Under the pieces are notes generated by a model that was given only the letters and a program-made list of their open reading frames with translations, was not told the DNA's origin and did no database searches. Positions 3,224 through 30,436 of a stretch of DNA of 64,000 nt are shown here, in pieces. Source of the stretch: Staphylococcus phage vB_SscM-1. The position numbers were made by a program, and so were the translations under genes. The stretch lies in the sequence record NC_047767.1, one strand, 5' to 3'. Position 1 is the first letter of the stretch; each line of letters begins with the position of its first letter.

Positions 3224-4105
3224 TTACATAACTTTAGTAATAATTAATCGTTCATGCCATACCCAAAGATTTGAGTCTTTTGAATAAATTCTAGCCCAAC
3301 CATCTTTAACTTCGTAAACATGGAAATTAGGTGTACCTGCTTTATAAACTAGGTTAGTCTTTTGATACTTACTACCTACTTTTTTACACACTGTAATTCC
3401 TGCACTATCAGCTTTAGCAATAAATTGTTTAGAACTTTTATGAGCTAAAGTTTTAGGTGCTTTTTGTCCTACTTTAAGTTTACTAGTTGTTTTCTTAGTC
3501 TTAGGCTTAGTTGTTTTCTTAGCCGGTGCTTTTGTAGAGCCTCCAATAGATTTACCATGGATACCTTCTGCAATCTTCTTAGTAAATGATTGTAGGTTTT
3601 TCTTAATATAGTTCATGTCACCACTATTAGTAATAAATCCTAGTTCTACTAAACGGTAGTTAATATTAATTTGACCTGCAACATTACAATTTAATAAATC
3701 GTTACGTTTAGTTACACCTCTAATAACTCCTACTGTATCTTTAAGTGCTTTTTGAATACCATTATCAATACTATCTGCTGGATAAGCACTAGGTATAATA
3801 ACATGTCCTCCACTTGCACTTGGACTAGCACTATCTAAATGGAACTCAACTACAACTTTATATCCTTGAGATTTAACCCAATATAATCCGTAGTCTTTAG
3901 TATTACCTAATTTTTGACCATAAGCTGTATCTTGGTACATGTCTTGTGACTTACCGTAAATAGCAACAGTATGCCCTGCTTGCTTAAGATACTTAGCTAC
4001 ATTATCGACAATATTGTTTCTAATGAAATCTCTCTCATTTGTACCATTTCCGACTGCTCCAGGGTCGTTATATCCGTGACCTGCTACTAACATAATTTTA
4101 GTCAT
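3224..4105 (-). CDS. endolysin: N-acetylmuramoyl-L-alanine amidase (Amidase_3-type) plus SH3b-like cell-wall-binding domain
   Basis: N-terminus MLVAGHGYNDPGAVGNG...HLDSASPSASGGHVIIPS is typical of MurNAc-LAA (Amidase_3). C-terminal 65 aa match the CBD repeats of the CHAP lysin. Confidence 0.75.
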   Translation of the reverse strand: MTKIMLVAGHGYNDPGAVGNGTNERDFIRNNIVDNVAKYLKQAGHTVAIYGKSQDMYQDTAYGQKLGNTKDYGLYWVKSQGYKVVVEFHLDSASPSASGGHVIIPSAYPADSIDNGIQKALKDTVGVIRGVTKRNDLLNCNVAGQININYRLVELGFITNSGDMNYIKKNLQSFTKKIAEGIHGKSIGGSTKAPAKKTTKPKTKKTTSKLKVGQKAPKTLAHKSSKQFIAKADSAGITVCKKVGSKYQKTNLVYKAGTPNFHVYEVKDGWARIYSKDSNLWVWHERLIITKVM

Positions 4106-4108
4106 TAA

Positions 4109-4163
4109 AAAATCACCTTTCTGTTATAATTTGTACTACATCTAATATAACAGAAAGGTGATT
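4109..4163. terminator. long hairpin (19-bp stem), probable bidirectional terminator
   Basis: aaatcacctttctgttata ... tataacagaaaggtgattt inverted repeat with a 17-nt loop, and T-rich tracts on both sides. Confidence 0.55.
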
Positions 4164-4170
4164 TATAATT

Positions 4171-4365
4171 TTATTTATTTCTTGATGATAAACTTTCTAG
4201 TTTCTTAATAATTTGAGATGCTGTTTTATTATCTACTGACTCTAAAGTTGTTTCTGGTAAAAGTTCAATTGCATCCCAAACTTCTTGTTTATTACTAAAT
4301 TTTTCATTAACAATAACATTACCAATTAATGATTCCATATAGTAAACTTGTTTATTAGTTGCCAT
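4171..4365 (-). CDS. hypothetical small protein (not a holin: no transmembrane segment)
   Basis: The ORF track starts at 4410, but that N-terminus overlaps the RBS aaaaaggag. ATG at 4365 (MATNKQVYYMES...) is the likely start. Confidence 0.45.
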   Translation of the reverse strand: MATNKQVYYMESLIGNVIVNEKFSNKQEVWDAIELLPETTLESVDNKTASQIIKKLESLSSRNK

Positions 4366-5730
4366 TCCATAAAACTCCTTTTTTATTATATGTATAACCA
4401 CGGACGTCAACGTGGCTTTAAACTTCGGTTTCCATCATCGTAATAACTTCCACCTCAATACTCCGCAGAGTAGACATAGCTATGTAAAGTATATAACTAG
4501 CATCTCTTCCTAGGAGAACACGCTTGCGTTATATACTCAATGAAACTCTACCCTCATTCGAGGAAACAGCAAACCGATTCGTCAATCGCACATGTTAATT
4601 CTCAAGTTTCATTTATGTATAACTCCCTCTAACCTGTAACTTGGGAGCGTGGTAATTTACCATACGTACAAATTCCAGTTTTACATATTCAGGTACTAGT
4701 AAATATTTCAACTAGTTTGTGAAGTACGCTACCTTGAACTCATAAACTCCAATAGCTAAATAAGTTGTTTTTACTGAGGACATTTTTATTATGTATATAC
4801 CCTAGTGGTTAACTAGGGAGTTACTAAGGAACCACCTTAGCAAGTGGATATCTACAAACGTTGGCTAACTCGATACCTGCTACGAGTACTCCTAATATTT
4901 AAAAATAGCGTTAGGCACGCCCACGACCTTCGTAACGTTTTGTTTAGTAAGCTTGTTTATTCTATCAAATAAGTTTATAAATTGTACTTGGTCTGATACA
5001 ATAGTTTACTTACCTATGTATCCCCCTGGGCAATTAAACGCAGGAGGCAGTTCTTATGCCTATCACTTATAAGAAAACCTAAAACCATTATAAGCTGGAC
5101 TTTTGAAGATTGGTTTATTTTGTTCACGCATACGTAAAAACTTACCACTATCCATGGTTGATAAATTCTTACGCCCAGTATCATAGGGTTAGTTGAACAG
5201 GGACAAGTTATGGAACTAACTTGCGATAAAAGAGTTTTGTAGTTTATGTATGGCTAGTTATTTTTTATGTAGGACGAACTAGCAAAACTACATATCATCA
5301 TATAACCAGTAACTTCAGATGATAATAAAGTTTTTTTACAACTGGTTCATTTATGTATTGCCTACTCCTCGTAAGGTGGTAAGCTGAATTAATATATTAT
5401 GTATACTAGGATTGTACCAGTAAACTTCCTAGTGTTATCTTCCCATCTTGCACAGGAGACCTCGAGATTATCAGTCCCTTTAAATAGTTTTTTTCCTATG
5501 CCTATTACTAGATAGTAAGGATTGATTAATTCCAAACGTTACCCTCAATCTTTGGGTTAGCTCACAATATTTGAGTATGACACAGACTGGTTCGTGGATG
5601 ATTACCTCAATTCTATATATGTAACCTTGCACCTTGAACCCATAAACTCAGGTGCACCTAAAGCCGGCTAAGGAGTTTGGGTGACTTGGGGACATAGCAT
5701 TACCTCTTTTTTTGTTAGGACTATGTATAT

Positions 5731-5794: not shown

Positions 5795-5987
5795 TATTAT
5801 GATACCTACACTCAACTTAGTGCTTACACTTAAGATAGCCTAAGGTTTACAAATGTTTAGTTTATATGCATTTCAGCATTTGGCACGGTATCCTACCTTT
5901 TCCCTTCATTTTCTTAAGACAAATGCTATAACCTCACGATTATAGAGACTGTGTTTAAGCACACAGTTAAGCTACTATTGTAATTTC

Positions 5988-10221: not shown

Positions 10222-10565
10222 ATGGATGGAAAGAAAATATTAAAAATAGCTCAAGAAACATTTGGTACTGAGGAGATAACAAGAGAACAATTAGACCACA
10301 TTATCAACATGTTAAATCCCTCAACATATATGTTAAGGTACCATACTTTAAGAGGGCACCCTATTACATTTAGTATTCCTAATAGGGATAGAAGTAAAGC
10401 ACAGGCACACCGCCCCTGGCAAGTAAAAATCGTAAATGACACCCATCCAAATAAAGTAGTAATTAAAAGCAGACAGCTTGGATTATCGGAAATGGGTGTA
10501 ATGGAGATGGTGCACTTTGCAGACCTTCATAGTTATGCTAACGTGAAGTGTTTGTTTACATTCCC
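10222..10565 (+). CDS. terL: terminase large subunit, exon 1 (ATPase N-terminus with Walker A)
   Basis: KSRQLGLSE resembles the T4 gp17 Walker A motif SRQLGKT. The track ORF runs on to a stop at 10570 inside intron sequence. The splice site is placed after U10565 (P1: attccct pairing with ggggaat, U·G at the junction). Confidence 0.6.
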
Positions 10566-10830
10566 TAAATAGTTGGGGAATTAAAACTCTGTTAAACGGG
10601 CAAAGCTGAATAATGAATAAGCTGGTAAGAGAACCTAAGTCCAAACGGATAGAGGCAATCCCGTGCTAAATCGAACTAAGGTATATATACCTTAGTTACG
10701 TAAAAGCCTAACGACTAAATTTCTAGGTAGCTATACAAAAGGGTATAGTGAGAACTAGATAAGAAAGCTCTTTATAGAGAAGTAAAGCAGAGAGCTTAAC
10801 ACCAAAACGTTGAGCTAAGATATAGTCTAG
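10566..10830 (+). mobile_element. group I intron (terL intron 1, ORF-less, ~265 nt)
   Basis: It shares a 17-nt 5' element and a ~60-nt near-identical core (gcctaACGACUAaat...) with the downstream intron. AACGACUA resembles P7 of phage IA2 introns. It ends in G10830, and joining restores a Pro codon (cc|t) and the reading frame. Confidence 0.6.
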
Positions 10831-11041
10831 TCCGTATATAAATATCACGAAAGTGACGGTAGTAACGACTAACGAACAAATGAAGAAATTTGTTCAGTCT
10901 AGGTTAAACCCAGTACTAGAGAAGGAATATTTTAAAGATATTGTAAACTGGGACAAAGACTCACTAGGATATAAACAAATAAGAAATTCTAGTATGTTCT
11001 TTAGAACTAGTAGTAAAGCTAGTACTGTCGAAGGTGTGGAT
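10831..11041 (+). CDS. terL: terminase large subunit, exon 2
   Basis: In-frame coding piece (…PYINITKVTVVTTNEQMKKF…STVEGVD). The ORF track shows only its GTG-initiated part, 10853..11047. The splice site is placed after U11041 (P1: guggaU pairing with GUCCAC). Confidence 0.55.
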
Positions 11042-12274
11042 AGGTAGTAAGTCCACATTAAACTCTGTTAAACGGGGAAACCCCTAACGTAAAGACGAGG
11101 GCAATCCCGTGCTAAATGTTGACTTTATATAAAATATATGTTATAATATATTTGTAAGGTTAATTAAATGCCTAACGACTAAATTTCTAGGTAGCTATAC
11201 AAAAGGGTATAGTGAGAACTAGATAAGAAAACCGCCAAGATTATTTTTAGTAAGTAAATAAGTTTATAAAAAAGGAGGGTTATTGTATGGATATGGAGGA
11301 GAAATTTAAAGAAAAACTATATAATTTAGTAAAAGATGAATATACATTAATAGGTAAATACATTAGAAGTACTGAAAAAGTATGCATTAAACACAATAAA
11401 TGTGGCTATGAATGGGATGTATACCCTGGAAATATACTTAATAAAAATACTAGATGCCCTAGATGTGCAGGTAATGCAAAGCTAACACACAGTGATTTTT
11501 TATCTAGAGTTAAACATGTACATGATGATTCTATCGAAGTACTTAGCACATATAAAGGTCAACTTAAGAAAGTAGATTTACAACATGAATGTGGTTACAG
11601 GTGGTCAGCAACACCTAATAACATACTGAGAGGTAAAGGTTGCCCTAAGTGTAGAGGCTCAATGAAGCTAACACAAGAGCAGATAGATTGTAGGATGTCT
11701 GAGTTATTTGAAGGTGAGTATAAATTTTTAGAACCTTATATAAATAGTGACACAGCTATTATGTGTAAACATTCATGTGGTCATACATGGAAGGTAAGAC
11801 CTTACAATTTATTTGGAGGTAGAAAGTGCCCTGTATGTTATAGAAGGTCACAGGGAGAATTATTCATCCAAAATATTCTAGAGACTAACAAGGTTAACTT
11901 TACAATAGAAAAATCATTTGAGGGTTGTAAAGATAAGATAGCACTAAGGTTTGACTTTTACTTACCCGACTATAATTGTGTTATTGAATATGATGGTGAG
12001 CATCATTTCTTAGACAATCGTTACTCTAAAAATTCAGATTCACTAGAAGTGGTGAAAAAGCGTGATAAGATAAAGGATGATTTCTGTAGAGATAATGGTA
12101 TTAATATGATACGCATTCCATATTATATGGATGATTTAAAAGTTAAGGAACTAATATTAGAACTTCTTGGCGGAAGTAAAGCAGAGAACCTTTCACCTAA
12201 TAGAAAGGTTATGATATAGTCTAATCCGACTCTTAAATGAGTGTTAAAGTATTAGGAAACTAACGGTATAAATG
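11042..12274 (+). mobile_element. group I intron (terL intron 2, ~1.23 kb) carrying a homing-endonuclease ORF
   Basis: The core at 11059..11230 is near-identical to intron 1. The ORF sits after the core. The intron ends in G12274 and exon 3 resumes in frame at 12275 (IDYLSLDE…); 12298/12299 is an alternative 3' site. Confidence 0.6.
11287..12219 (+). CDS. intron-encoded homing endonuclease: three zinc-ribbon repeats plus a DUF559/Vsr-like (PD-(D/E)xK-fold) nuclease domain
   Basis: Three repeats CGYEWDV…CPRC, CGYRWSA…CPKC, CGHTWKV…CPVC. The C-terminus FDFYLPDYNCVIEYDGEHHF…KKRDKIKDDFCRDNGINMIRIPY matches the DUF559 pattern (hDFh…hhIEhDG..H…D..RD..L…G..hhRh). Own RBS aaaaggaggg. Confidence 0.65.
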   Translation: MDMEEKFKEKLYNLVKDEYTLIGKYIRSTEKVCIKHNKCGYEWDVYPGNILNKNTRCPRCAGNAKLTHSDFLSRVKHVHDDSIEVLSTYKGQLKKVDLQHECGYRWSATPNNILRGKGCPKCRGSMKLTQEQIDCRMSELFEGEYKFLEPYINSDTAIMCKHSCGHTWKVRPYNLFGGRKCPVCYRRSQGELFIQNILETNKVNFTIEKSFEGCKDKIALRFDFYLPDYNCVIEYDGEHHFLDNRYSKNSDSLEVVKKRDKIKDDFCRDNGINMIRIPYYMDDLKVKELILELLGGSKAENLSPNRKVMI

Positions 12275-13567
12275 ATTGACTACCTTTCACTCGATGAGTA
12301 TGACCGTGTAAATGCACTTGCTGAGTCCTCAGCATTAGAGTCTATGTCTTCTTCCCCTTTCAAAGTAGTAAGGAGATGGAGCACTCCTACAGTTAAAGAT
12401 TATGGAATAGATAAGTTATACAAACAATCAGACCAATGGTTTTATGGTTATGACTGTAAACACTGTGACCATTTTAATGAAATGAAGTATGAAGACTACA
12501 ACCCAGATGATTTATCCGCAAGTGGAAATGTTCTTCTAGTTAACCCAGATGGAATAGATGAAGAAGCTAAGACTGTTCAGGATGGAACATATCAATATGT
12601 GTGTCAAAAGTGTGGTAAACCTTTAGAAAGATGGTATTCTGGTAGATGGGCTTGCAAGTATCCTAGCAGAACTGAAAATAACAAAGGTATAAGAGGATAC
12701 TTTATAAGCCAACTTAACGCTGTATGGATTTCTTTAGATGAGATTAAAGAAAAAGAAATGAGAACAGAGTCTAAACAAGCATTTTATAACTACATTATAG
12801 GAGCACCTTTCGAAGATGTAAAAATGAAAGTGTTAGATGGAGATATCCTGGATAATAAATCACCATTTGCTAAGAAACAATTATTTAATAGAGATAGATA
12901 CAAGTACATTTCAGTAGGTATAGATTGGGGAAATCATCATTGGGTAACAGTTCATGGTATGACACATGATAATAAGGTAGACCTTATTAGACTGTTTAAT
13001 GTTAAGAAAATGAGTAGACCTGATTTAGTAGAAGCAGACTTAGAGAAGATAATGTATGAGATATCAAAATATGACCCTGATATAATTGTAGCAGATAACG
13101 GAGACTCAGGTAACAATGTTCTTAAACTCATAAATAGATTTGGAGAAGATAAAGTATTTGGATGTACTTATAAATCTTCACCAAGGTCATCAGGACAACT
13201 TAGACCAGAGTTTAATGAGAAAAAGAATACTGTAACAGTAGATAAGCTAATGCAAAATAAAAAGTATATACAAGCATTAAAAACAAAAGATATTAGGATG
13301 TACCAAGAAGTAGATGATGACTTAAAACTTTATTTAAAACATTGGCAAAATGTTATAATTATGGATGAAGAAGATGAAAAGACAGGAGATATATACCAAA
13401 TAATTAAAAGACGTGGAGACGACCATTATAGTCAGTCAGCAGTTATTGGGTATATAGGTATTAATAGACTTTTAGATTTAGAAACTAAAACTAAAGGTAC
13501 TAACTTTGAATCTACATTTGTATCTACTGATTACAACACAGAAGATAATCCCAAATATCATATTTAG
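12275..13567 (+). CDS. terL: terminase large subunit, exon 3 (C-terminal region incl. RNase H-like nuclease domain)
   Basis: Motifs VGIDWGNHHW and DIIVADNGDSG are typical of the terminase nuclease domain. The spliced product is about 615 aa. Confidence 0.65.
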   Translation: MDYLSLDEYDRVNALAESSALESMSSSPFKVVRRWSTPTVKDYGIDKLYKQSDQWFYGYDCKHCDHFNEMKYEDYNPDDLSASGNVLLVNPDGIDEEAKTVQDGTYQYVCQKCGKPLERWYSGRWACKYPSRTENNKGIRGYFISQLNAVWISLDEIKEKEMRTESKQAFYNYIIGAPFEDVKMKVLDGDILDNKSPFAKKQLFNRDRYKYISVGIDWGNHHWVTVHGMTHDNKVDLIRLFNVKKMSRPDLVEADLEKIMYEISKYDPDIIVADNGDSGNNVLKLINRFGEDKVFGCTYKSSPRSSGQLRPEFNEKKNTVTVDKLMQNKKYIQALKTKDIRMYQEVDDDLKLYLKHWQNVIIMDEEDEKTGDIYQIIKRRGDDHYSQSAVIGYIGINRLLDLETKTKGTNFESTFVSTDYNTEDNPKYHI

Positions 13568-25911: not shown

Positions 25912-27675
25912 ATGGCAAAAGATGTATTCCCAAGAAAACCAATACAAAGACCGCATACCTCAGTTGAAGTAGATACTTCAGGTATCGGTGGTTCCGCTAG
26001 TGCTAGTGAGAAAGTACTTTGCTTGATTGGTAAAGCAGATGGTGGAGAACCAGATACAGTTTATGAATTAAGAAACTATGCTCAGGCTAAACGTGTTTTC
26101 CGTAACGGAGAATTACTAGATGCTATCGAGTTAGCATGGGGTTCTAATCCACAATACACAGCAGGTAAGATTTTAGCTATGCGTATTGAAGATGCAAAAC
26201 CAGCAAAATTAGAAGCAGGTGGATTAAGAGTTATTTCTGAATTATACGGAAATGATGCAAACAATATCCAAGTAGCTTTAGAAAAGAACACACTAAATGA
26301 CTCATTACGTTTACGTTTAATTTTTGAAAACGATAGAATTAACACAACATTTGATAACTTAGGTAATATCTTTACTATCCGTTACACAGGAGACGAGTCT
26401 ACAGGTTCATTCTCTGTTGAGAAAGACCAAGAGACAGGTAAAGCTACTAAGTTAGTTTTAAAAGCAGGTAGTCAAGAAGTTAAGTCTTATGATTTAAACG
26501 GTGGAGCTTACAGTTACACAAATGAAATCATTCAAGATATTAATCAATTACCAGACTTTGAAGCTAAGTTATCACCTTATGGAGATAAAAATATTGAATC
26601 TAAAGAATTAGATGAAGCACAAGATGTAGACATCAAAGACAAAGCTAAGTATGTTAAATCTATTTTTGGAGATATCCAAAAGCAAACAGCATACAATGGT
26701 TTAATCCGCTTTGAACAAGTAGAAGAAGACCAAAGTGCTCCAGAAGACGTAGAAGTTGAAGCAGGGGAAGAAGATGCTACTGTAACAGCAACATCTACAG
26801 TTAAAGCAATCGAACCATTTGCATTAACTAAATTAGCGGGAGGAACTAACGGAGAACCTCCAACATCATGGGCTCATAAATTAGAGAAGTTTGCTCATGA
26901 AGGTGGATACTATGTAGTACCTTTATCAGACAAGCAATCAGTACACGCTGAGGTAGCTCATTTTGTTAAAGAACGCTCAGATGCAGGAGAACCAATGAGA
27001 GCTATTGTTGGTGGAGGTATTAATGAATCTAAAGAACAATTGTTCGGAAGACAAGCATCATTATCTAACCCACGAGTAGCATTAGTTGCTAACTCAGGTA
27101 CATTCCCAATGGATGATGGTCGTCAATTAAAAGCACCAGCTTACATGACAGCATCAGCTATCGGTGGTTTAGTATCAGGTTTAGATATCGGTGAATCAAT
27201 TACATTCAAACATATCCGTATCAGCTCATTAGATGCAATTTATGAGTCTACAGATTTAGACCAATTGAATGAAAATGGAATTATCACTATTGAATTTGTT
27301 CGTAACCGTACATCTACTAACTTCCGTATTGTAGACGATGTAACAACATTCAACGATAAATCAGACCCAGTTAAACATGAAATGGCAGTAGGAGAAGCTA
27401 ATGACTTCTTAGTATCTGAATTGAAAGTACAACTTGATGATAACTTCATCGGTACACGTACTATTAATACAAGTGCATCAGTCATTAAAGACTTTATCCA
27501 ATCTTACTTAGACCGTAAGAAACGTGATAATGAAATCCAAGACTTCCCTGCAGAAGATGTACAAGTTATCGTAGAAGGTAATGAGGCTAGAATCTCATTA
27601 ACAATCTACCCTATCAGAAGCCTTAAAAAGATTTCTGTTAGCCTTGTTTATCGTCAGCAAACATTACAAGCCTAG
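25912..27675 (+). CDS. tail sheath protein
   Basis: 587 aa. The N-terminus MAKDVFPRKPIQRPHTSVEVDTSGIGGSA and overall size match contractile-tail sheath proteins of Twort-like myoviruses, by recollection. Followed by a terminator. Confidence 0.7.
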   Translation: MAKDVFPRKPIQRPHTSVEVDTSGIGGSASASEKVLCLIGKADGGEPDTVYELRNYAQAKRVFRNGELLDAIELAWGSNPQYTAGKILAMRIEDAKPAKLEAGGLRVISELYGNDANNIQVALEKNTLNDSLRLRLIFENDRINTTFDNLGNIFTIRYTGDESTGSFSVEKDQETGKATKLVLKAGSQEVKSYDLNGGAYSYTNEIIQDINQLPDFEAKLSPYGDKNIESKELDEAQDVDIKDKAKYVKSIFGDIQKQTAYNGLIRFEQVEEDQSAPEDVEVEAGEEDATVTATSTVKAIEPFALTKLAGGTNGEPPTSWAHKLEKFAHEGGYYVVPLSDKQSVHAEVAHFVKERSDAGEPMRAIVGGGINESKEQLFGRQASLSNPRVALVANSGTFPMDDGRQLKAPAYMTASAIGGLVSGLDIGESITFKHIRISSLDAIYESTDLDQLNENGIITIEFVRNRTSTNFRIVDDVTTFNDKSDPVKHEMAVGEANDFLVSELKVQLDDNFIGTRTINTSASVIKDFIQSYLDRKKRDNEIQDFPAEDVQVIVEGNEARISLTIYPIRSLKKISVSLVYRQQTLQA

Positions 27676-27682
27676 TACCAAC

Positions 27683-27710
27683 AAGGAGGTACTAGGTACC
27701 TCCTTTTTAT
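27683..27710 (+). terminator. rho-independent terminator after sheath gene
   Basis: Stem aaggaggtac/gtacctcctt with loop tag, then ttttat. Confidence 0.55.
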
Positions 27711-27747
27711 AAAAATAATTAAGAAATAATTAGGAGAGTGAATATAG

Positions 27748-28086
27748 ATGGCATCAGAAGCTAAACAAACAGTCCATACTGGTAATACCGTCCTTCTAAT
27801 GATTAAAGGTAAACCGGTAGGAAGAGCTCAATCAGCATCAGGTCAACGTCAATATGGAACTACTGGTGTATACGAGATTGGGTCAATCATGCCTCAAGAA
27901 CACGTTTACTTAAAATATGAAGGTACATTAACAGTAGAACGTTTAAGAATGAAGAAAGAAAACTTTGCAAAACTAGGATATGCTTCATTAGGTGAAGAAA
28001 TCCTTAAGAAGGATATCATTGATATTCTTATTATTGATAACTTAACTAAACAAGTTATTATTAGTTATCACGGTTGTAGTGCCAAT
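27748..28086 (+). CDS. tail tube protein, exon 1
   Basis: 113 codons ending …ISYHGCSAN. The track ORF reads 2 more codons into the intron before its stop. Exon 1 ends on U28086. Confidence 0.6.
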
Positions 28087-28420
28087 AAATAATTGTTGCC
28101 TCTATACAGTAATGTATAGTTGAATAATACCTGAAATTGCGGGAACCCCTTAAAGCTAATCAAACTACAAAGTAATCCGAAAGGATAAGCTTGAATGTTA
28201 CGAAAGTAGAAAAAATTGATTAGATGGTATAAGGTGAGATAAAAGCATTAGTAACTAACGACATATTACTAGTGTCCTAAGTACTGGAACAATAGGAAAT
28301 CCGCAGGCAAGCTTACGAAAGTGAGAAGCTTCAACGACTGTAATAGGTAGACTCCTTATAAATAAGGGTCATGGGACAGTCTAACCCCTTTAAAATATAT
28401 TGAAAGATAGGGTGTAAGTG
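28087..28420 (+). mobile_element. group I intron (tail tube intron 1, 334 nt, ORF-less)
   Basis: A 334-nt non-coding segment ending in G28420, with conserved elements shared with intron 2 (…ucaACGACUguaau…). Exon 2 resumes the tube frame (NYNESWTTNEIVTESIEFSYLTAS). Confidence 0.55.
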
Positions 28421-28490
28421 AACTATAACGAGAGCTGGACAACTAATGAAATTGTAACAGAATCTATTGAGTTTAGTTATTTAACAGCAT
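28421..28490 (+). CDS. tail tube protein, exon 2 (70 nt)
   Basis: In-frame continuation; ends on U28490. Confidence 0.5.
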
Positions 28491-28740
28491 CAACTAACTA
28501 GGTGCCTTTACACAGCAATGTGTATCGAACAATCCTCTAATTCAGGGAACCTCTAAACATATTAAGATGTAGACAATCCTGAGCTAAGCTCCTTTAAGGA
28601 GAAAGTGCAACGACTAGTCAGAATGACGTACACTCAAGTGAGTGGAAATGGGGATTACCCTTATGGGGTAGTGATATAGTCTGAACTATATGGAAACATA
28701 TAGAAGGTTAGGAATAACGAACCTAATCGTAACATAATTG
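28491..28740 (+). mobile_element. group I intron (tail tube intron 2, 250 nt, ORF-less)
   Basis: Non-coding segment with a core resembling intron 1 (…gcaACGACUagucag…, …cagcaatgtgtat…). It ends in G28740. Confidence 0.5.
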
Positions 28741-28760
28741 CAGATAAAGCTTCAAATTAA
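28741..28760 (+). CDS. tail tube protein, exon 3 (20-nt micro-exon: ca gat aaa gct tca aat taa)
   Basis: It completes …LTAS-DKASN-stop, giving a 142-aa product, and is followed at once by a terminator hairpin. Confidence 0.45.
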
Positions 28761-28765
28761 TAAGG

Positions 28766-28800
28766 AAGACCTAACAATAAAAGTTAGGTCTTTAATTTTA
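28766..28800 (+). terminator. rho-independent terminator after tail tube
   Basis: Stem aagacctaac/gttaggtctt with loop aataaaa, then taatttta. Confidence 0.5.
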
Positions 28801-28803
28801 TAC

Positions 28804-28832
28804 TTGCTTTGTCAGAAGCAGTGTGGTATAAT
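28804..28832 (+). promoter_or_regulatory. promoter TTGCTT-N17-TGgTATAAT for the free-standing endonuclease gene
   Basis: -35 at 28804..28809, extended -10 at 28824..28832. RBS ataaggaggtaat lies before the ATG at 28856. Confidence 0.5.
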
Positions 28833-28855
28833 ATAAAATATAAGGAGGTAATATT

Positions 28856-29788
28856 ATGACAAATACAAATCAATTCACATTCAATATAGAGAAGAGTAAA
28901 GAGATATGGAATGAATGGTGTATAAACCAAAATTTAAAACCCTTAGTAGAATATGAAAAGTCACAACAAACTTTTTACTTTGAATTCTTAGAAGGTAAAT
29001 TTAAGGGGTTAGTAGGTAAAACATATTGGGCTAGTATTAAGAGAGGCTCTATTATGTTAATGAGTTGTTTAACACCTGAAAGTAAAGATAAATATATTAA
29101 GTCTTTAGGAGAGTCAAAAGGTATCAGGATACTTGAAGACTATAAAGGTGGTAGAAAGATTAAACATAAATTTATAGTAGCGGAAGGTAAATACCAAGGA
29201 TGTGAAGGATATATAACGTTAAATGATTTAGAGAGTTTAGGTAGAATAGACAACAGAAGTTTATCTGAAAAAGGAAGGAAACAATATTTTGATAAGCAAG
29301 CAAGACTCAGAGATTGTGTTATTTTAGAATATCCTAAGGAATATAGAATAAAAACTAAAGATAAGATAATAGTAAAAGATAAAGAAGGTCATGTTCATAA
29401 TATTATTGTACAGGACTTTTTTGAGAAAACATCTTTAATGGAACTATCTTGTGCTAGTGAAGGGGAGAAAATAGTTAAAGAAATACTTACTAAAAATGCT
29501 ATAAAATTTGAGAAAGAAAAATCATTCAGAAATAAAGAAGGTAGAATACAAAGATTTGACTTTTATATTAATGAAAATAATAAAGAGTATGTAATAGAAT
29601 ATAATGGTGCACAACATTATAGAGATTCTACAGGATACCTCAAAGATACTTTAGAAGTAACTCAGAAAAGAGATAAACTAAAAAAAGAATATATTAAAGA
29701 TAAAGGAATAGAGTTATTAATTATTCCTTACACAGTAACAGATAAAAAAGAAATGGAAGAAATGATTTTAGACTTTTTTAACAAATAA
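28856..29788 (+). CDS. free-standing homing-endonuclease-like protein with DUF559/Vsr-like nuclease domain (paralogue of the terL intron ORF)
   Basis: C-terminus RFDFYINENNKEYVIEYNGAQHY…QKRDKLKKEYIKDKGIELLIIPY is homologous to the C-terminus of 11287..12219. The N-terminal 200 aa are unrelated and lack the zinc-ribbon repeats. Confidence 0.6.
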   Translation: MTNTNQFTFNIEKSKEIWNEWCINQNLKPLVEYEKSQQTFYFEFLEGKFKGLVGKTYWASIKRGSIMLMSCLTPESKDKYIKSLGESKGIRILEDYKGGRKIKHKFIVAEGKYQGCEGYITLNDLESLGRIDNRSLSEKGRKQYFDKQARLRDCVILEYPKEYRIKTKDKIIVKDKEGHVHNIIVQDFFEKTSLMELSCASEGEKIVKEILTKNAIKFEKEKSFRNKEGRIQRFDFYINENNKEYVIEYNGAQHYRDSTGYLKDTLEVTQKRDKLKKEYIKDKGIELLIIPYTVTDKKEMEEMILDFFNK

Positions 29789-29844
29789 CCCTTGACTCAT
29801 CCTCAAGGGTTATGCTATACTTTAAATAAAGGAGGAGAGATATA

Positions 29845-30003
29845 ATGAATAACAGACAATCTAAAATAAAAGGATACAACATGTTTCATTATTACGACTA
29901 CCCTACAACTAAAGGAAAATTTAAAAAGATAATGAAAAGGAAATCTAGAACAGAACTTAAAAAAGACTTACAGAAAGAAAGGGATAACTATGAAAAAGAG
30001 TAA
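29845..30003 (+). CDS. hypothetical small basic peptide (52 aa)
   Basis: RBS aaaggaggag 7 nt upstream; K/R-rich (pI very high). Below the ORF-track size cutoff. Confidence 0.3.
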   Translation: MNNRQSKIKGYNMFHYYDYPTTKGKFKKIMKRKSRTELKKDLQKERDNYEKE

Positions 30004-30133
30004 TAAAAAGACCTTAGGTAAGATGACACATAAAAGAGCAGTTTGGGATATTAACCCTGTAACAAGAGTAACTAAAGACAAAACAAAATATACTAGAAAA
30101 AAGAAGCATAAAAATGTTGACAATAATTATTAA
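29990..30133 (+). CDS. hypothetical small basic peptide (47 aa)
   Basis: Overlaps the previous ORF by 14 nt in another frame; extremely K-rich. Its 3' end overlaps the next promoter. Confidence 0.2.
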   Translation: MKKSNKKTLGKMTHKRAVWDINPVTRVTKDKTKYTRKKKHKNVDNNY

Positions 30134-30145
30134 AGATGTTATAAT
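30117..30145 (+). promoter_or_regulatory. sigma-A consensus promoter TTGACA-N17-TATAAT
   Basis: -35 at 30117..30122 and -10 at 30140..30145, upstream of the 30176 gene. Confidence 0.55.
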
Positions 30146-30175
30146 ACTATTATAAACAGTAAGGAGACGATATTA

Positions 30176-30436
30176 ATGAGAATGACAGAGCATGTAAGAT
30201 ATACTATGGATTGCTTTATGCAACTAGGTGTTACATTTGAAGTAACACCTGAAGCCATTATTGTAGTAGCAACAGATGAAGATGTTTACAGTATCCAATT
30301 TAAAGATGGTATTGCAGAGGTAGCATATAGATATTATGGAAAACTTAAAAGATTAGGTGTGTTACAGCATTTAACAAACTATACACTAGAAGAAACACCA
30401 CAAATGTGTGAAGAGATAAAGGAGCATATTCAATGA
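30176..30436 (+). CDS. hypothetical protein
   Basis: 86-aa ORF with RBS aaggagacg. Confidence 0.5.
   Translation: MRMTEHVRYTMDCFMQLGVTFEVTPEAIIVVATDEDVYSIQFKDGIAEVAYRYYGKLKRLGVLQHLTNYTLEETPQMCEEIKEHIQ

Follow-up and report, generated by a model that had tools for sequence, protein, structure and literature searches.

The tail tube gene of Staphylococcus phage vB_SscM-1 is interrupted close to its 3' end by two group I introns that lack open reading frames (ORFs), the second of which leaves a terminal exon of only 20 nucleotides (nt). We studied this gene in a stretch of 64,000 nt (sequence record NC_047767.1; one strand, 5' to 3'), hereafter called the window, which is that of a Sciuriunavirus-like phage of the Twortvirinae with phages ZCSS1 and UHP46 as its closest relatives (96% identity over 93-94% of positions 27748-30200). 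Judging from their architecture and their relatives, both introns very likely splice in vivo, and we consider it highly probable that they are self-splicing elements that have spread together with an adjoining endonuclease gene, a joint explanation whose mobility part we infer from comparisons among related phage loci.

Anatomy and product of the interrupted tail tube gene

The first ORF of the tube gene spans positions 27748-28092 and encodes 114 amino acids (aa), since past position 28086 it reads AAA TAA and ends with the stop codon at 28090-28092, two codons into a segment of 334 nt. The reading frame picks up at 28421 with NYNESWTTNEIVTESIEFSYLTAS, continues for 70 nt to position 28490 and is broken a second time by a segment of 250 nt. 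It is closed by the 20 nt at 28741-28760, CAGATAAAGCTTCAAATTAA, which complete a reading frame of 429 nt for a protein of 142 aa that ends in ...LTASDKASN, with a predicted C-terminal peptide of the spliced product that ends in ...FSYLTASDKASN. An earlier note on this DNA had described the stop two codons into the 334-nt segment, the resumption of the frame at 28421 for 70 nt, the second segment of 250 nt with its group I-like elements and the 20-nt piece that completes a 142-aa protein just before a terminator, and these coordinates and lengths match the sequence base for base. The parts of the gene are as follows.

27732..27738, plus strand: ribosome binding site AGGAGAG of the tail tube gene, read from the sequence; it ends 9 nt 5' of the ATG at 27748
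27748..28086, plus strand: exon 1 of the tail tube gene, 339 nt, codons 1-113, 3' end U; colinear with the intronless gene of phage MSShimriz1
28087..28420, plus strand: intron 1, 334 nt, ORF-less group I intron with a P5 extension, 3' end G
28421..28490, plus strand: exon 2 of the tail tube gene, 70 nt, NYNESWTTNEIVTESIEFSYLTA plus the first base of a Ser codon, 3' end U
28491..28740, plus strand: intron 2, 250 nt, ORF-less group I intron of the phage IA type, 3' end G
28741..28760, plus strand: exon 3, the 20-nt terminal micro-exon, which begins with the remaining two bases of this Ser codon and encodes D K A S N before the stop
28765..28800, plus strand: intrinsic terminator of the tube gene, an 11-bp stem followed by a T-rich tail, with the terminator-like hairpin and its tail placed at 28765-28793; kept in intronless MSShimriz1

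An intronless allele of this gene is present in the Mammaliicoccus phage MSShimriz1, whose uninterrupted tube gene is 99.3% identical over residues 1-142 in a tblastn search with the spliced protein as query (141 of 142 residues are the same). At the DNA level, blastn aligns the window with MSShimriz1 in three colinear blocks (27400-28088, 28421-28492 and 28741-28801) that leave out the segments of both introns, and the spliced DNA aligns without a gap across the gene and the terminator stem. Uninterrupted tube genes of 140-143 aa are found in many other Herelleviridae, and phage PG-2021_31 carries intron 2 and lacks intron 1. Together, the colinear intronless allele and the PG-2021_31 gene without intron 1 exclude a chance arrangement or a pseudogene. 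The 20 nt of exon 3 are identical in UHP46, PG-2021_31 and intronless MSShimriz1. The spliced protein matches PHROG 985, a family of virion structural proteins (E 1.4e-74), and the gene upstream of it (25912-27675) encodes the tail sheath (Pfam Phage_sheath_1).

Each junction can be slid by 0, 1 or 2 nt without any change in the spliced product. For both introns, a single one of these choices combines a 5' exon ending in U with an intron ending in G (28420 and 28740, respectively), and it is this choice that the earlier note had made when it described the ends of exons and introns. Each intron has a stop codon 4-9 nt from its start. A direct junction of exon 1 with exon 3 would shift the frame, which would then read past the terminator (28738-28836) as ...QIKLQINKEDLTIKVRSLILYLLCQKQCGII, and skipping of exon 2 would therefore yield a defective product in vB_SscM-1.

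Several other explanations for the two inserted segments were considered and rejected. An intein is ruled out by the lack of an in-frame protein insert and by the stops a few nucleotides into each segment, programmed frameshifting or readthrough by gaps of 334 and 250 nt that are full of stops, and a group II intron by the wrong size and core motifs. No ORF of more than 31 aa was found inside intron 1 or intron 2, which rules out an intron-encoded endonuclease. Elsewhere in the window, a match to the J3/4-P4 consensus motif on the minus strand near position 5911 was checked and is not an intron.

Structure and guide sequences of the two introns

Group I membership was assessed with the Rfam covariance model RF00028 and its curated gathering score of 50 bits. 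Intron 2 reaches 89.8 bits (E 2.4e-23 in a scan of 1.3 kb) and is ca. 87-88% identical to intron 2 and ca. 82% identical to intron 3 of orf142 of phage Twort. The ribozyme of Twort orf142 intron 2 has reportedly been crystallized by Golden et al. in 2005. In the window, P1 of intron 2 is formed by GCAU and GUGC (28487-28490/28502-28505) and P7 by GACUA at 28612-28616 and UAGUC at 28677-28681, and a minimum free energy fold regains P1, P4-P6, P7, P7.1/7.2, P8 and P9. Between P7 and P3' lie the P7.1 and P7.2 hairpins GUCA-GAA-UGAC and CACUC-AAGU-GAGUG (ca. 28617-28645), and this pair of hairpins together with a short P5 places intron 2 in subgroup IA2, the type of the T4 td intron and of introns 2 and 3 of Twort orf142.

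Intron 1, whose segment is absent from both MSShimriz1 and PG-2021_31, is of a structural lineage other than IA2 and intron 2, as only 2 nt separate its P7 from P3' (28342 to 28345) and its P5 carries an extension of three helices (28156-28223 and beyond). Its elements comprise P1 (CAAU/GUUG, 28083-28086/28095-28098), P3 (28128-28132/28345-28349), P4 (28137-28143/28300-28306), P7 (GACUG/CAGUC, 28336-28342/28375-28381) and P8 (28350-28356/28364-28370). To score this structure for covariation, we aligned nine homologues of intron 1 from five insertion sites and six phage loci, including the window, and considered 70 pairs of P1-P9 with the P3/P7 pseudoknot. Standard pairs occupy 94.7% of the cells, compared to 36-42% after a shift of the 3' partners by 1-3 columns, and 36 of the 70 pairs show compensatory changes; none of 500 shuffles reached the observed values. 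The P1 columns of this alignment are one out of register for three introns at site 402 and one at site 328, so that the pairing counts for P1 are too low. That both segments are group I introns, as the earlier note had proposed, is thus borne out by the Rfam matches, the covariation in the lineage of intron 1, the P1 guide pairing, which in both introns puts a U-G wobble at the 5' splice site, and the restoration of an intact gene.

Each intron would, after transcription, fold into a group I core in which an internal guide pairs with the last four bases of the 5' exon (CAAU with GUUG for intron 1 and GCAU with GUGC for intron 2). A free guanosine held in P7 would attack the 5' splice site, after which the terminal G of the intron would take its place and the freed 5' exon would attack the 3' splice site. 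The outcome would be a single mRNA for the 142-aa tube protein, while unspliced RNA would be translated only up to the stops a few bases into each intron.

The guides follow the insertion sites. We mapped 21 related introns to 10 sites of the tube gene. Spliced-alignment mapping of micro-exons is noisy in distant IMG/VR loci; sites were trusted only where refinement by the U/G rule and guide pairing agree. Between positions +8 and +15, 20 of these 21 introns carry a G followed by three or more nt that pair with their own 5' exon, and the sole exception is an entry with a junction placed one base off. Mismatched combinations of intron and exon reach 4 bp in only 17% of cases. By position in the coding sequence (CDS), the guides are GACC or GUUCACG at site 328, GUUG at 339, GUAG at 345, GUGUCUC at 355, GUUC at 366, GCGA at 374, GUGC at both 386 and 409, GCUC at 391 and GAGG at 402.

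A particularly close pair of introns at different sites is formed by intron 1 of the window, which is inserted at CDS 339 (guide GUUG, exon CAAU), and its copy in UHP46 (locus L001, 2015-2347), which is 89% identical and sits 27 nt further downstream at CDS 366 with the guide GUUC for the exon GAAU, the termini of the two introns being different. A nearly unchanged intron body at another site with a matched guide means that the intron has moved between neighboring sites.

The first intron of kayvirus PM28 at CDS 355 (locus L003, 1997-2301; also found in kayvirus 812) seems to end in A and not in G if the conserved ...NETWQTN... frame is to be kept, and the A-ending junction fits a P1 of 7 bp and a P10 of 6 bp. 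A spliced tube gene has been listed with 426 nt compared to 429 nt in the intronless mutant (Botka 2019).

The downstream endonuclease gene and the proposed spread of the introns

Directly behind the terminator of the tube gene, the window carries DNA that is absent from MSShimriz1 (locus L005).

28802..29979, plus strand: segment of 1.18 kb absent from MSShimriz1 that carries the endonuclease gene; by blastn, window 28741-28801 corresponds to L005 1910-1969 and window 29980-30300 to L005 2018-2339
28804..28832, plus strand: promoter-like site TTGCTT, 17 nt, TG-n-TATAAT, read from the sequence
28856..29788, plus strand: gene of 310 aa, read as that of a free-standing homing endonuclease; its C-terminal domain is predicted to have an I-Bth0305I/Vsr-like (EDxHD) fold

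The gene starts 96 nt past the tube gene's stop codon and is equipped with a promoter-like site, a ribosome binding site and a terminator of its own. The promoter-like site was not listed by a consensus scan, and we therefore treat it as a putative promoter. In PHROG, the 310-aa protein has matches to families labeled as HNH, intron-encoded and homing endonucleases. It has no more than 19 close relatives in a collection of 5.8 billion proteins, and these are named "VSR endonuclease" or "intron-encoded nuclease". Among the homologues of the endonuclease, E204, D235, E248, H254, D273 and K276 are invariant, and the predicted fold of the protein is the Vsr-like catalytic fold derived from PD-(D/E)xK. 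A HMMER comparison of the 310-aa protein with I-Bth0305I gave no sequence similarity, and Pfam offers no usable family for it or for ORF018 of Twort. We read the ORF as a homing endonuclease gene that is free-standing and of the EDxHD/Vsr-like type; its product would be an active site-specific nuclease.

ORF-less introns next to a free-standing endonuclease gene that adjoins the interrupted gene form the layout of collaborative homing, and the two components tend to occur together. Among 78 usable tube-gene loci from IMG/VR, a homologue of the endonuclease lies within ca. 2 kb downstream of 15 of the 19 interrupted tube genes and of 6 of the 59 uninterrupted ones (Fisher p 3e-8, uncorrected for relatedness and overstating independence because these loci are related).

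Sequence divergence in the tube gene is concentrated on the side of the endonuclease gene, with synonymous differences clustered in the final 100-130 nt. The comparison of the window with MSShimriz1 reveals four differences in CDS 1-312, 18 differences with a single amino-acid change in CDS 313-409 and an identical last exon. Around intron 1, the exon sequence (ca. CDS 324-352) matches that of kayvirus HN01, where this site is occupied by an 89%-identical intron, and not that of the close relatives of the window. All mapped insertion sites fall within CDS 328-409, the part of the gene that is nearest to the endonuclease gene. Listeria-type phages from IMG/VR with uninterrupted tube genes (CDS at 4001-4423) behave alike: between those with the endonuclease gene (L028, L029 and L032) and those without it (L030, L031 and L033) there are 1-2 differences in CDS 1-294 and 18-36 differences, all of them synonymous, in CDS 295-423; L026, which also has the endonuclease gene, is divergent over the whole gene. 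This pattern looks like a sharp conversion or immunity tract beside the endonuclease gene. Joint inheritance and co-conversion of the flanking exons are thus both seen on the level of comparative evidence. The endonuclease of PG-2021 (P0004) is 74% identical to that of the window in a tube-gene region that is ca. 97% identical and has no intron 1, which suggests a faster turnover of endonuclease gene and introns than of their flanks.

We suggest that the introns are selfish passengers, confined to the final 100 nt of the tube gene, and that the endonuclease probably drives their spread: it would cut the DNA of co-infecting phages without the endonuclease gene, and in the course of repair this gene would be copied along with the introns and the 3' portion of the tube gene, a form of collaborative (trans) homing with co-conversion. 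What remains 3' of an insertion site located 20 nt from the stop codon would then be the last exon of 20 nt. The suggestion of the earlier note that the introns rather than the exon drive this architecture appears reasonable, given that related introns use some 10 sites in the final 100 nt of the gene and that it is adjoined by a homing endonuclease gene.

Several observations weigh against the joint explanation of two self-splicing introns that spread with the endonuclease gene. Splicing in vB_SscM-1 is a conclusion from structure and from the homologous introns of Twort, and P10 with the 3' exon is weak in both introns (1-2 bp by inspection). With RF00028, intron 1 scores 27.5 bits (E 1e-4; its UHP46 homologue 48.2 bits) and stays below the gathering score because the model penalizes an insertion of ca. 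130 nt in P5; its membership therefore rests on covariation, P1 and the omega-G. Rfam scans of the whole 64-kb window, with gathering as well as E-value thresholds, returned no match and missed both introns. The miss of intron 2 arises because speed filters lose AT-rich introns and is no evidence against the introns, and the negative whole-window scan is for the same reason uninformative on further introns. Searches for a relative of the 310-aa protein among PDB sequences with phmmer and with a 16-sequence profile found none, and its only Pfam match is a sub-threshold one to DUF2726 (E 0.004); without a sequence match to a solved structure, the EDxHD assignment rests on the predicted fold. The linkage is not obligatory, as an endonuclease homologue is missing from four interrupted loci and present at six uninterrupted ones. 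Finally, one type of endonuclease is found with introns at 339 and 409, 366 and 409, 339 and 402 or 374 and 402. A single endonuclease type can therefore not target every insertion site, which misfits strict collaborative homing, and hitch-hiking of the introns within a conversion tract fits better.

The strongest competitor, which we nevertheless judge to be unlikely, is that the introns spread by reverse splicing into RNA, reverse transcription and recombination, with the endonuclease gene as an unrelated neighbor. It would account for nearly identical intron bodies at different sites with matching guides such as the pair at 339 and 366 described above, given that a move to a new site needs more than ordinary homing, and it is favored by the four interrupted loci without an endonuclease homologue. 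Against it stand the strong association of interruption with the presence of the endonuclease, the joint disappearance of the introns and the nuclease gene in phage 812a (PMC6445280), tracts resembling co-conversion that cover exactly the intron-bearing part of the gene and a source of reverse transcriptase that is not evident. Reverse splicing may explain changes of site, not the spread as such. For these moves between sites homing provides no explanation, and reverse splicing or illegitimate recombination are the candidates.

It is less probable still that the endonuclease gene was once encoded inside an intron and was later replaced or relocated, so that its position beside the tube gene would be a relic and not a working partnership. 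Such an origin has been proposed for loci of collaborative homing (PMC10448857), and the different endonuclease versions of otherwise nearly identical phages would agree with it, as would the situation at terL in the same window (see below), where a paralogue lies between the gene halves near group I-like RNA matches. None of the 21 mapped tube-gene introns exceeds 335 nt or contains an ORF remnant, however, and the endonuclease gene, which lies outside the terminator of the tube gene, comes with a promoter-like site and a terminator of its own.

We attach even less weight to the idea that the introns have been co-opted for regulation, with splicing efficiency or exon skipping tuning the amount or the form of tube protein late in infection. 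Exon skipping has been seen between the tandem introns of Twort orf142 (PMC10136302), a role as regulatory switches has been suggested for introns of Herelleviridae (PMC11878797), and stop codons as close as 4-9 nt to the start of each intron would suit such a role. The same protein is made without one or both introns, though (PG-2021_31 has one and MSShimriz1 none), skipping of exon 2 in the window would shift the frame into 28741-28836 past the terminator and give a useless product, and the guides GUUG and GUGC differ from each other, unlike those of Twort introns 2 and 3. A decaying pseudogene or assembly artefact with junk insertions and a truncated tube protein of 114 aa can be dismissed with near certainty, even if annotations of related phages call only a truncated ORF (369 nt in UHP46 and 345 nt in HN01), in view of exons that remain in frame with 99.3% protein identity, covariation-supported group I folds in both segments, the recurrence of the architecture in many independent isolates and the experimental splicing of Twort orf142 reported in the literature.

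A broader and tentative proposal, for which the odds in our view are somewhat less than even, is that the last ca. 100 nt of the Herelleviridae tube gene form an intron hot zone within the co-conversion tract of an EDxHD endonuclease, in which two ORF-less intron lineages have been re-targeted to at least 10 sites (at about CDS 328, 339, 345, 355, 366, 374, 386, 391, 402 and 409) via small changes of their guides. Parts of this may already be found in Lavigne and Vandersteegen (2013) and Lobocka (2012). If the proposal is true, the introns would be carried along with the endonuclease gene and might in addition protect genomes through disruption of its target, and the locus would represent a naturally occurring case in which competition between endonucleases drives the re-targeting of ribozymes.

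A second gene of the window also appears interrupted. PHROG matches place the N-terminal piece of the large terminase gene terL at 10222-10572 and its C-terminal piece at 12272-13567, so that the gene is split over 10222-13567, and another endonuclease ORF of 310 aa (11287-12219) lies between the two halves and is 36% identical to its paralogue beside the tube gene over the C-terminal 147 aa. Sub-threshold matches to RF00028 fall at 10556-10849 (35.7 bits), 11070-11183 (31.3 bits) and 12115-12242 (20 bits). The terL gene probably contains one or two group I introns, one of them carrying a homing endonuclease gene.

Related systems and implications

The closest known counterpart of the window is orf142 of phage Twort, later recognized as the tail tube gene, which contains three self-splicing group I introns (Landthaler and Shub 1999, as cited in PMC10136302 and PMC11878797); exon skipping between its tandem introns and an internal exon of 23 nt have been described as well (PMC10136302). 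Its GenBank entry AF132670 joins the CDS from four pieces and states that it "contains group 1 introns". In our mapping, the Twort introns follow CDS nt 345, 386 and 409. Both phages have tandem ORF-less group I introns in the last 90 nt of the same gene with a product of 142 aa, and in both an endonuclease homologue (ORF018 in Twort) follows directly. Intron 3 of Twort and intron 2 of the window share their insertion site (CDS 409/410) and the GCAU/GUGC pairing, and both leave the same last exon of 20 nt. Unlike Twort, the window has two introns (at 339 and 409) that enclose an internal exon of 70 nt, its intron 1 is of another lineage with a long P5 extension and no P7.1/P7.2, and its guides are different (GUUG and GUGC), whereas introns 2 and 3 of Twort both use GUGC. 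The endonuclease of Twort is longer (437 aa, with an extra C-terminal region) and 33% identical to that of the window.

The earlier note had regarded a terminal exon of six codons as unusually small, a view that does not hold within this phage group given that Twort has the same one. The 20-nt micro-exon is real and not new, being of a known kind for this group of phages; what is new in the window is the combination of sites 339 and 409 in a Sciuriunavirus-like background. The exact arrangement of the window was found in no record of the phage collection that was searched. Homologues that span 80% or more of the intron occur in 88 phage records for intron 1 and in 109 for intron 2.

Kayvirus 812 likewise has two non-coding introns in its tube gene together with an adjoining putative nuclease gene, and its host-range mutant 812a has lost the tube-gene introns and the nuclease gene all at once (PMC6445280). 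As in the window, both are ORF-less group I introns located toward the 3' end of the gene, and the nuclease gene follows directly downstream. By our own mapping, however, the introns of kayvirus PM28 occupy sites 355 and 391 and not 339 and 409, and the nuclease of 812-type kayviruses is of the longer Twort ORF018 type. The tail protein gene tmpA is listed among the intron-bearing genes of Herelleviridae in a review (PMC10383478).

The features shared by the tube-gene loci and collaborative homing are joint inheritance and a co-converted flanking exon, for which the tube-gene evidence is comparative only. They differ in that several introns at many sites face one endonuclease locus in the case of the tube gene, and in that the endonuclease of the window has a predicted EDxHD/Vsr-like fold and is not of the Endo VII-like, HNH or GIY-YIG type. 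I-Bth0305I (PDB 3R3P), with which the EDxHD family was founded, is itself encoded within a group I intron, whereas the gene in the window is free-standing. Collaborative or trans homing in phages was reportedly described by Zeng (2009) and by Bonocora and Shub (2009). It is established in other phages (PMC3984707; PMC10448857; PMC2790892), with cases such as the psbA intron of S-PM2 and the free-standing F-CphI, T3/phiI-type phages and the T4 mobE gene that mobilizes the I-TevIII intron (PMC2790892; PMC3984707).

The introns are unannotated in most related GenBank records, and tail tube calls in GenBank are exon 1 read into the intron, with 122 aa in UHP46 (L001, 1649-2017) and 114 aa in HN01 (L004, 1648-1992); in Twort, ORF106 (L006, 2501-2866) is a truncated tail tube call of 121 aa. 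Automatic annotation therefore truncates an essential gene to products of 114-122 aa where the correct one has 142 aa.

The locus leaves what is known of the mechanism of group I introns unchanged and adds a further case in which a structural gene of a phage holds well-preserved group I introns in tandem and ends in a very short exon. Because the same intron body is found at neighboring sites with matched guides and silent divergence is confined to the vicinity of the endonuclease gene, the tube gene of the Herelleviridae is a good natural system for studying how ORF-less introns move and how endonuclease homing shapes the mosaicism of phage genomes.

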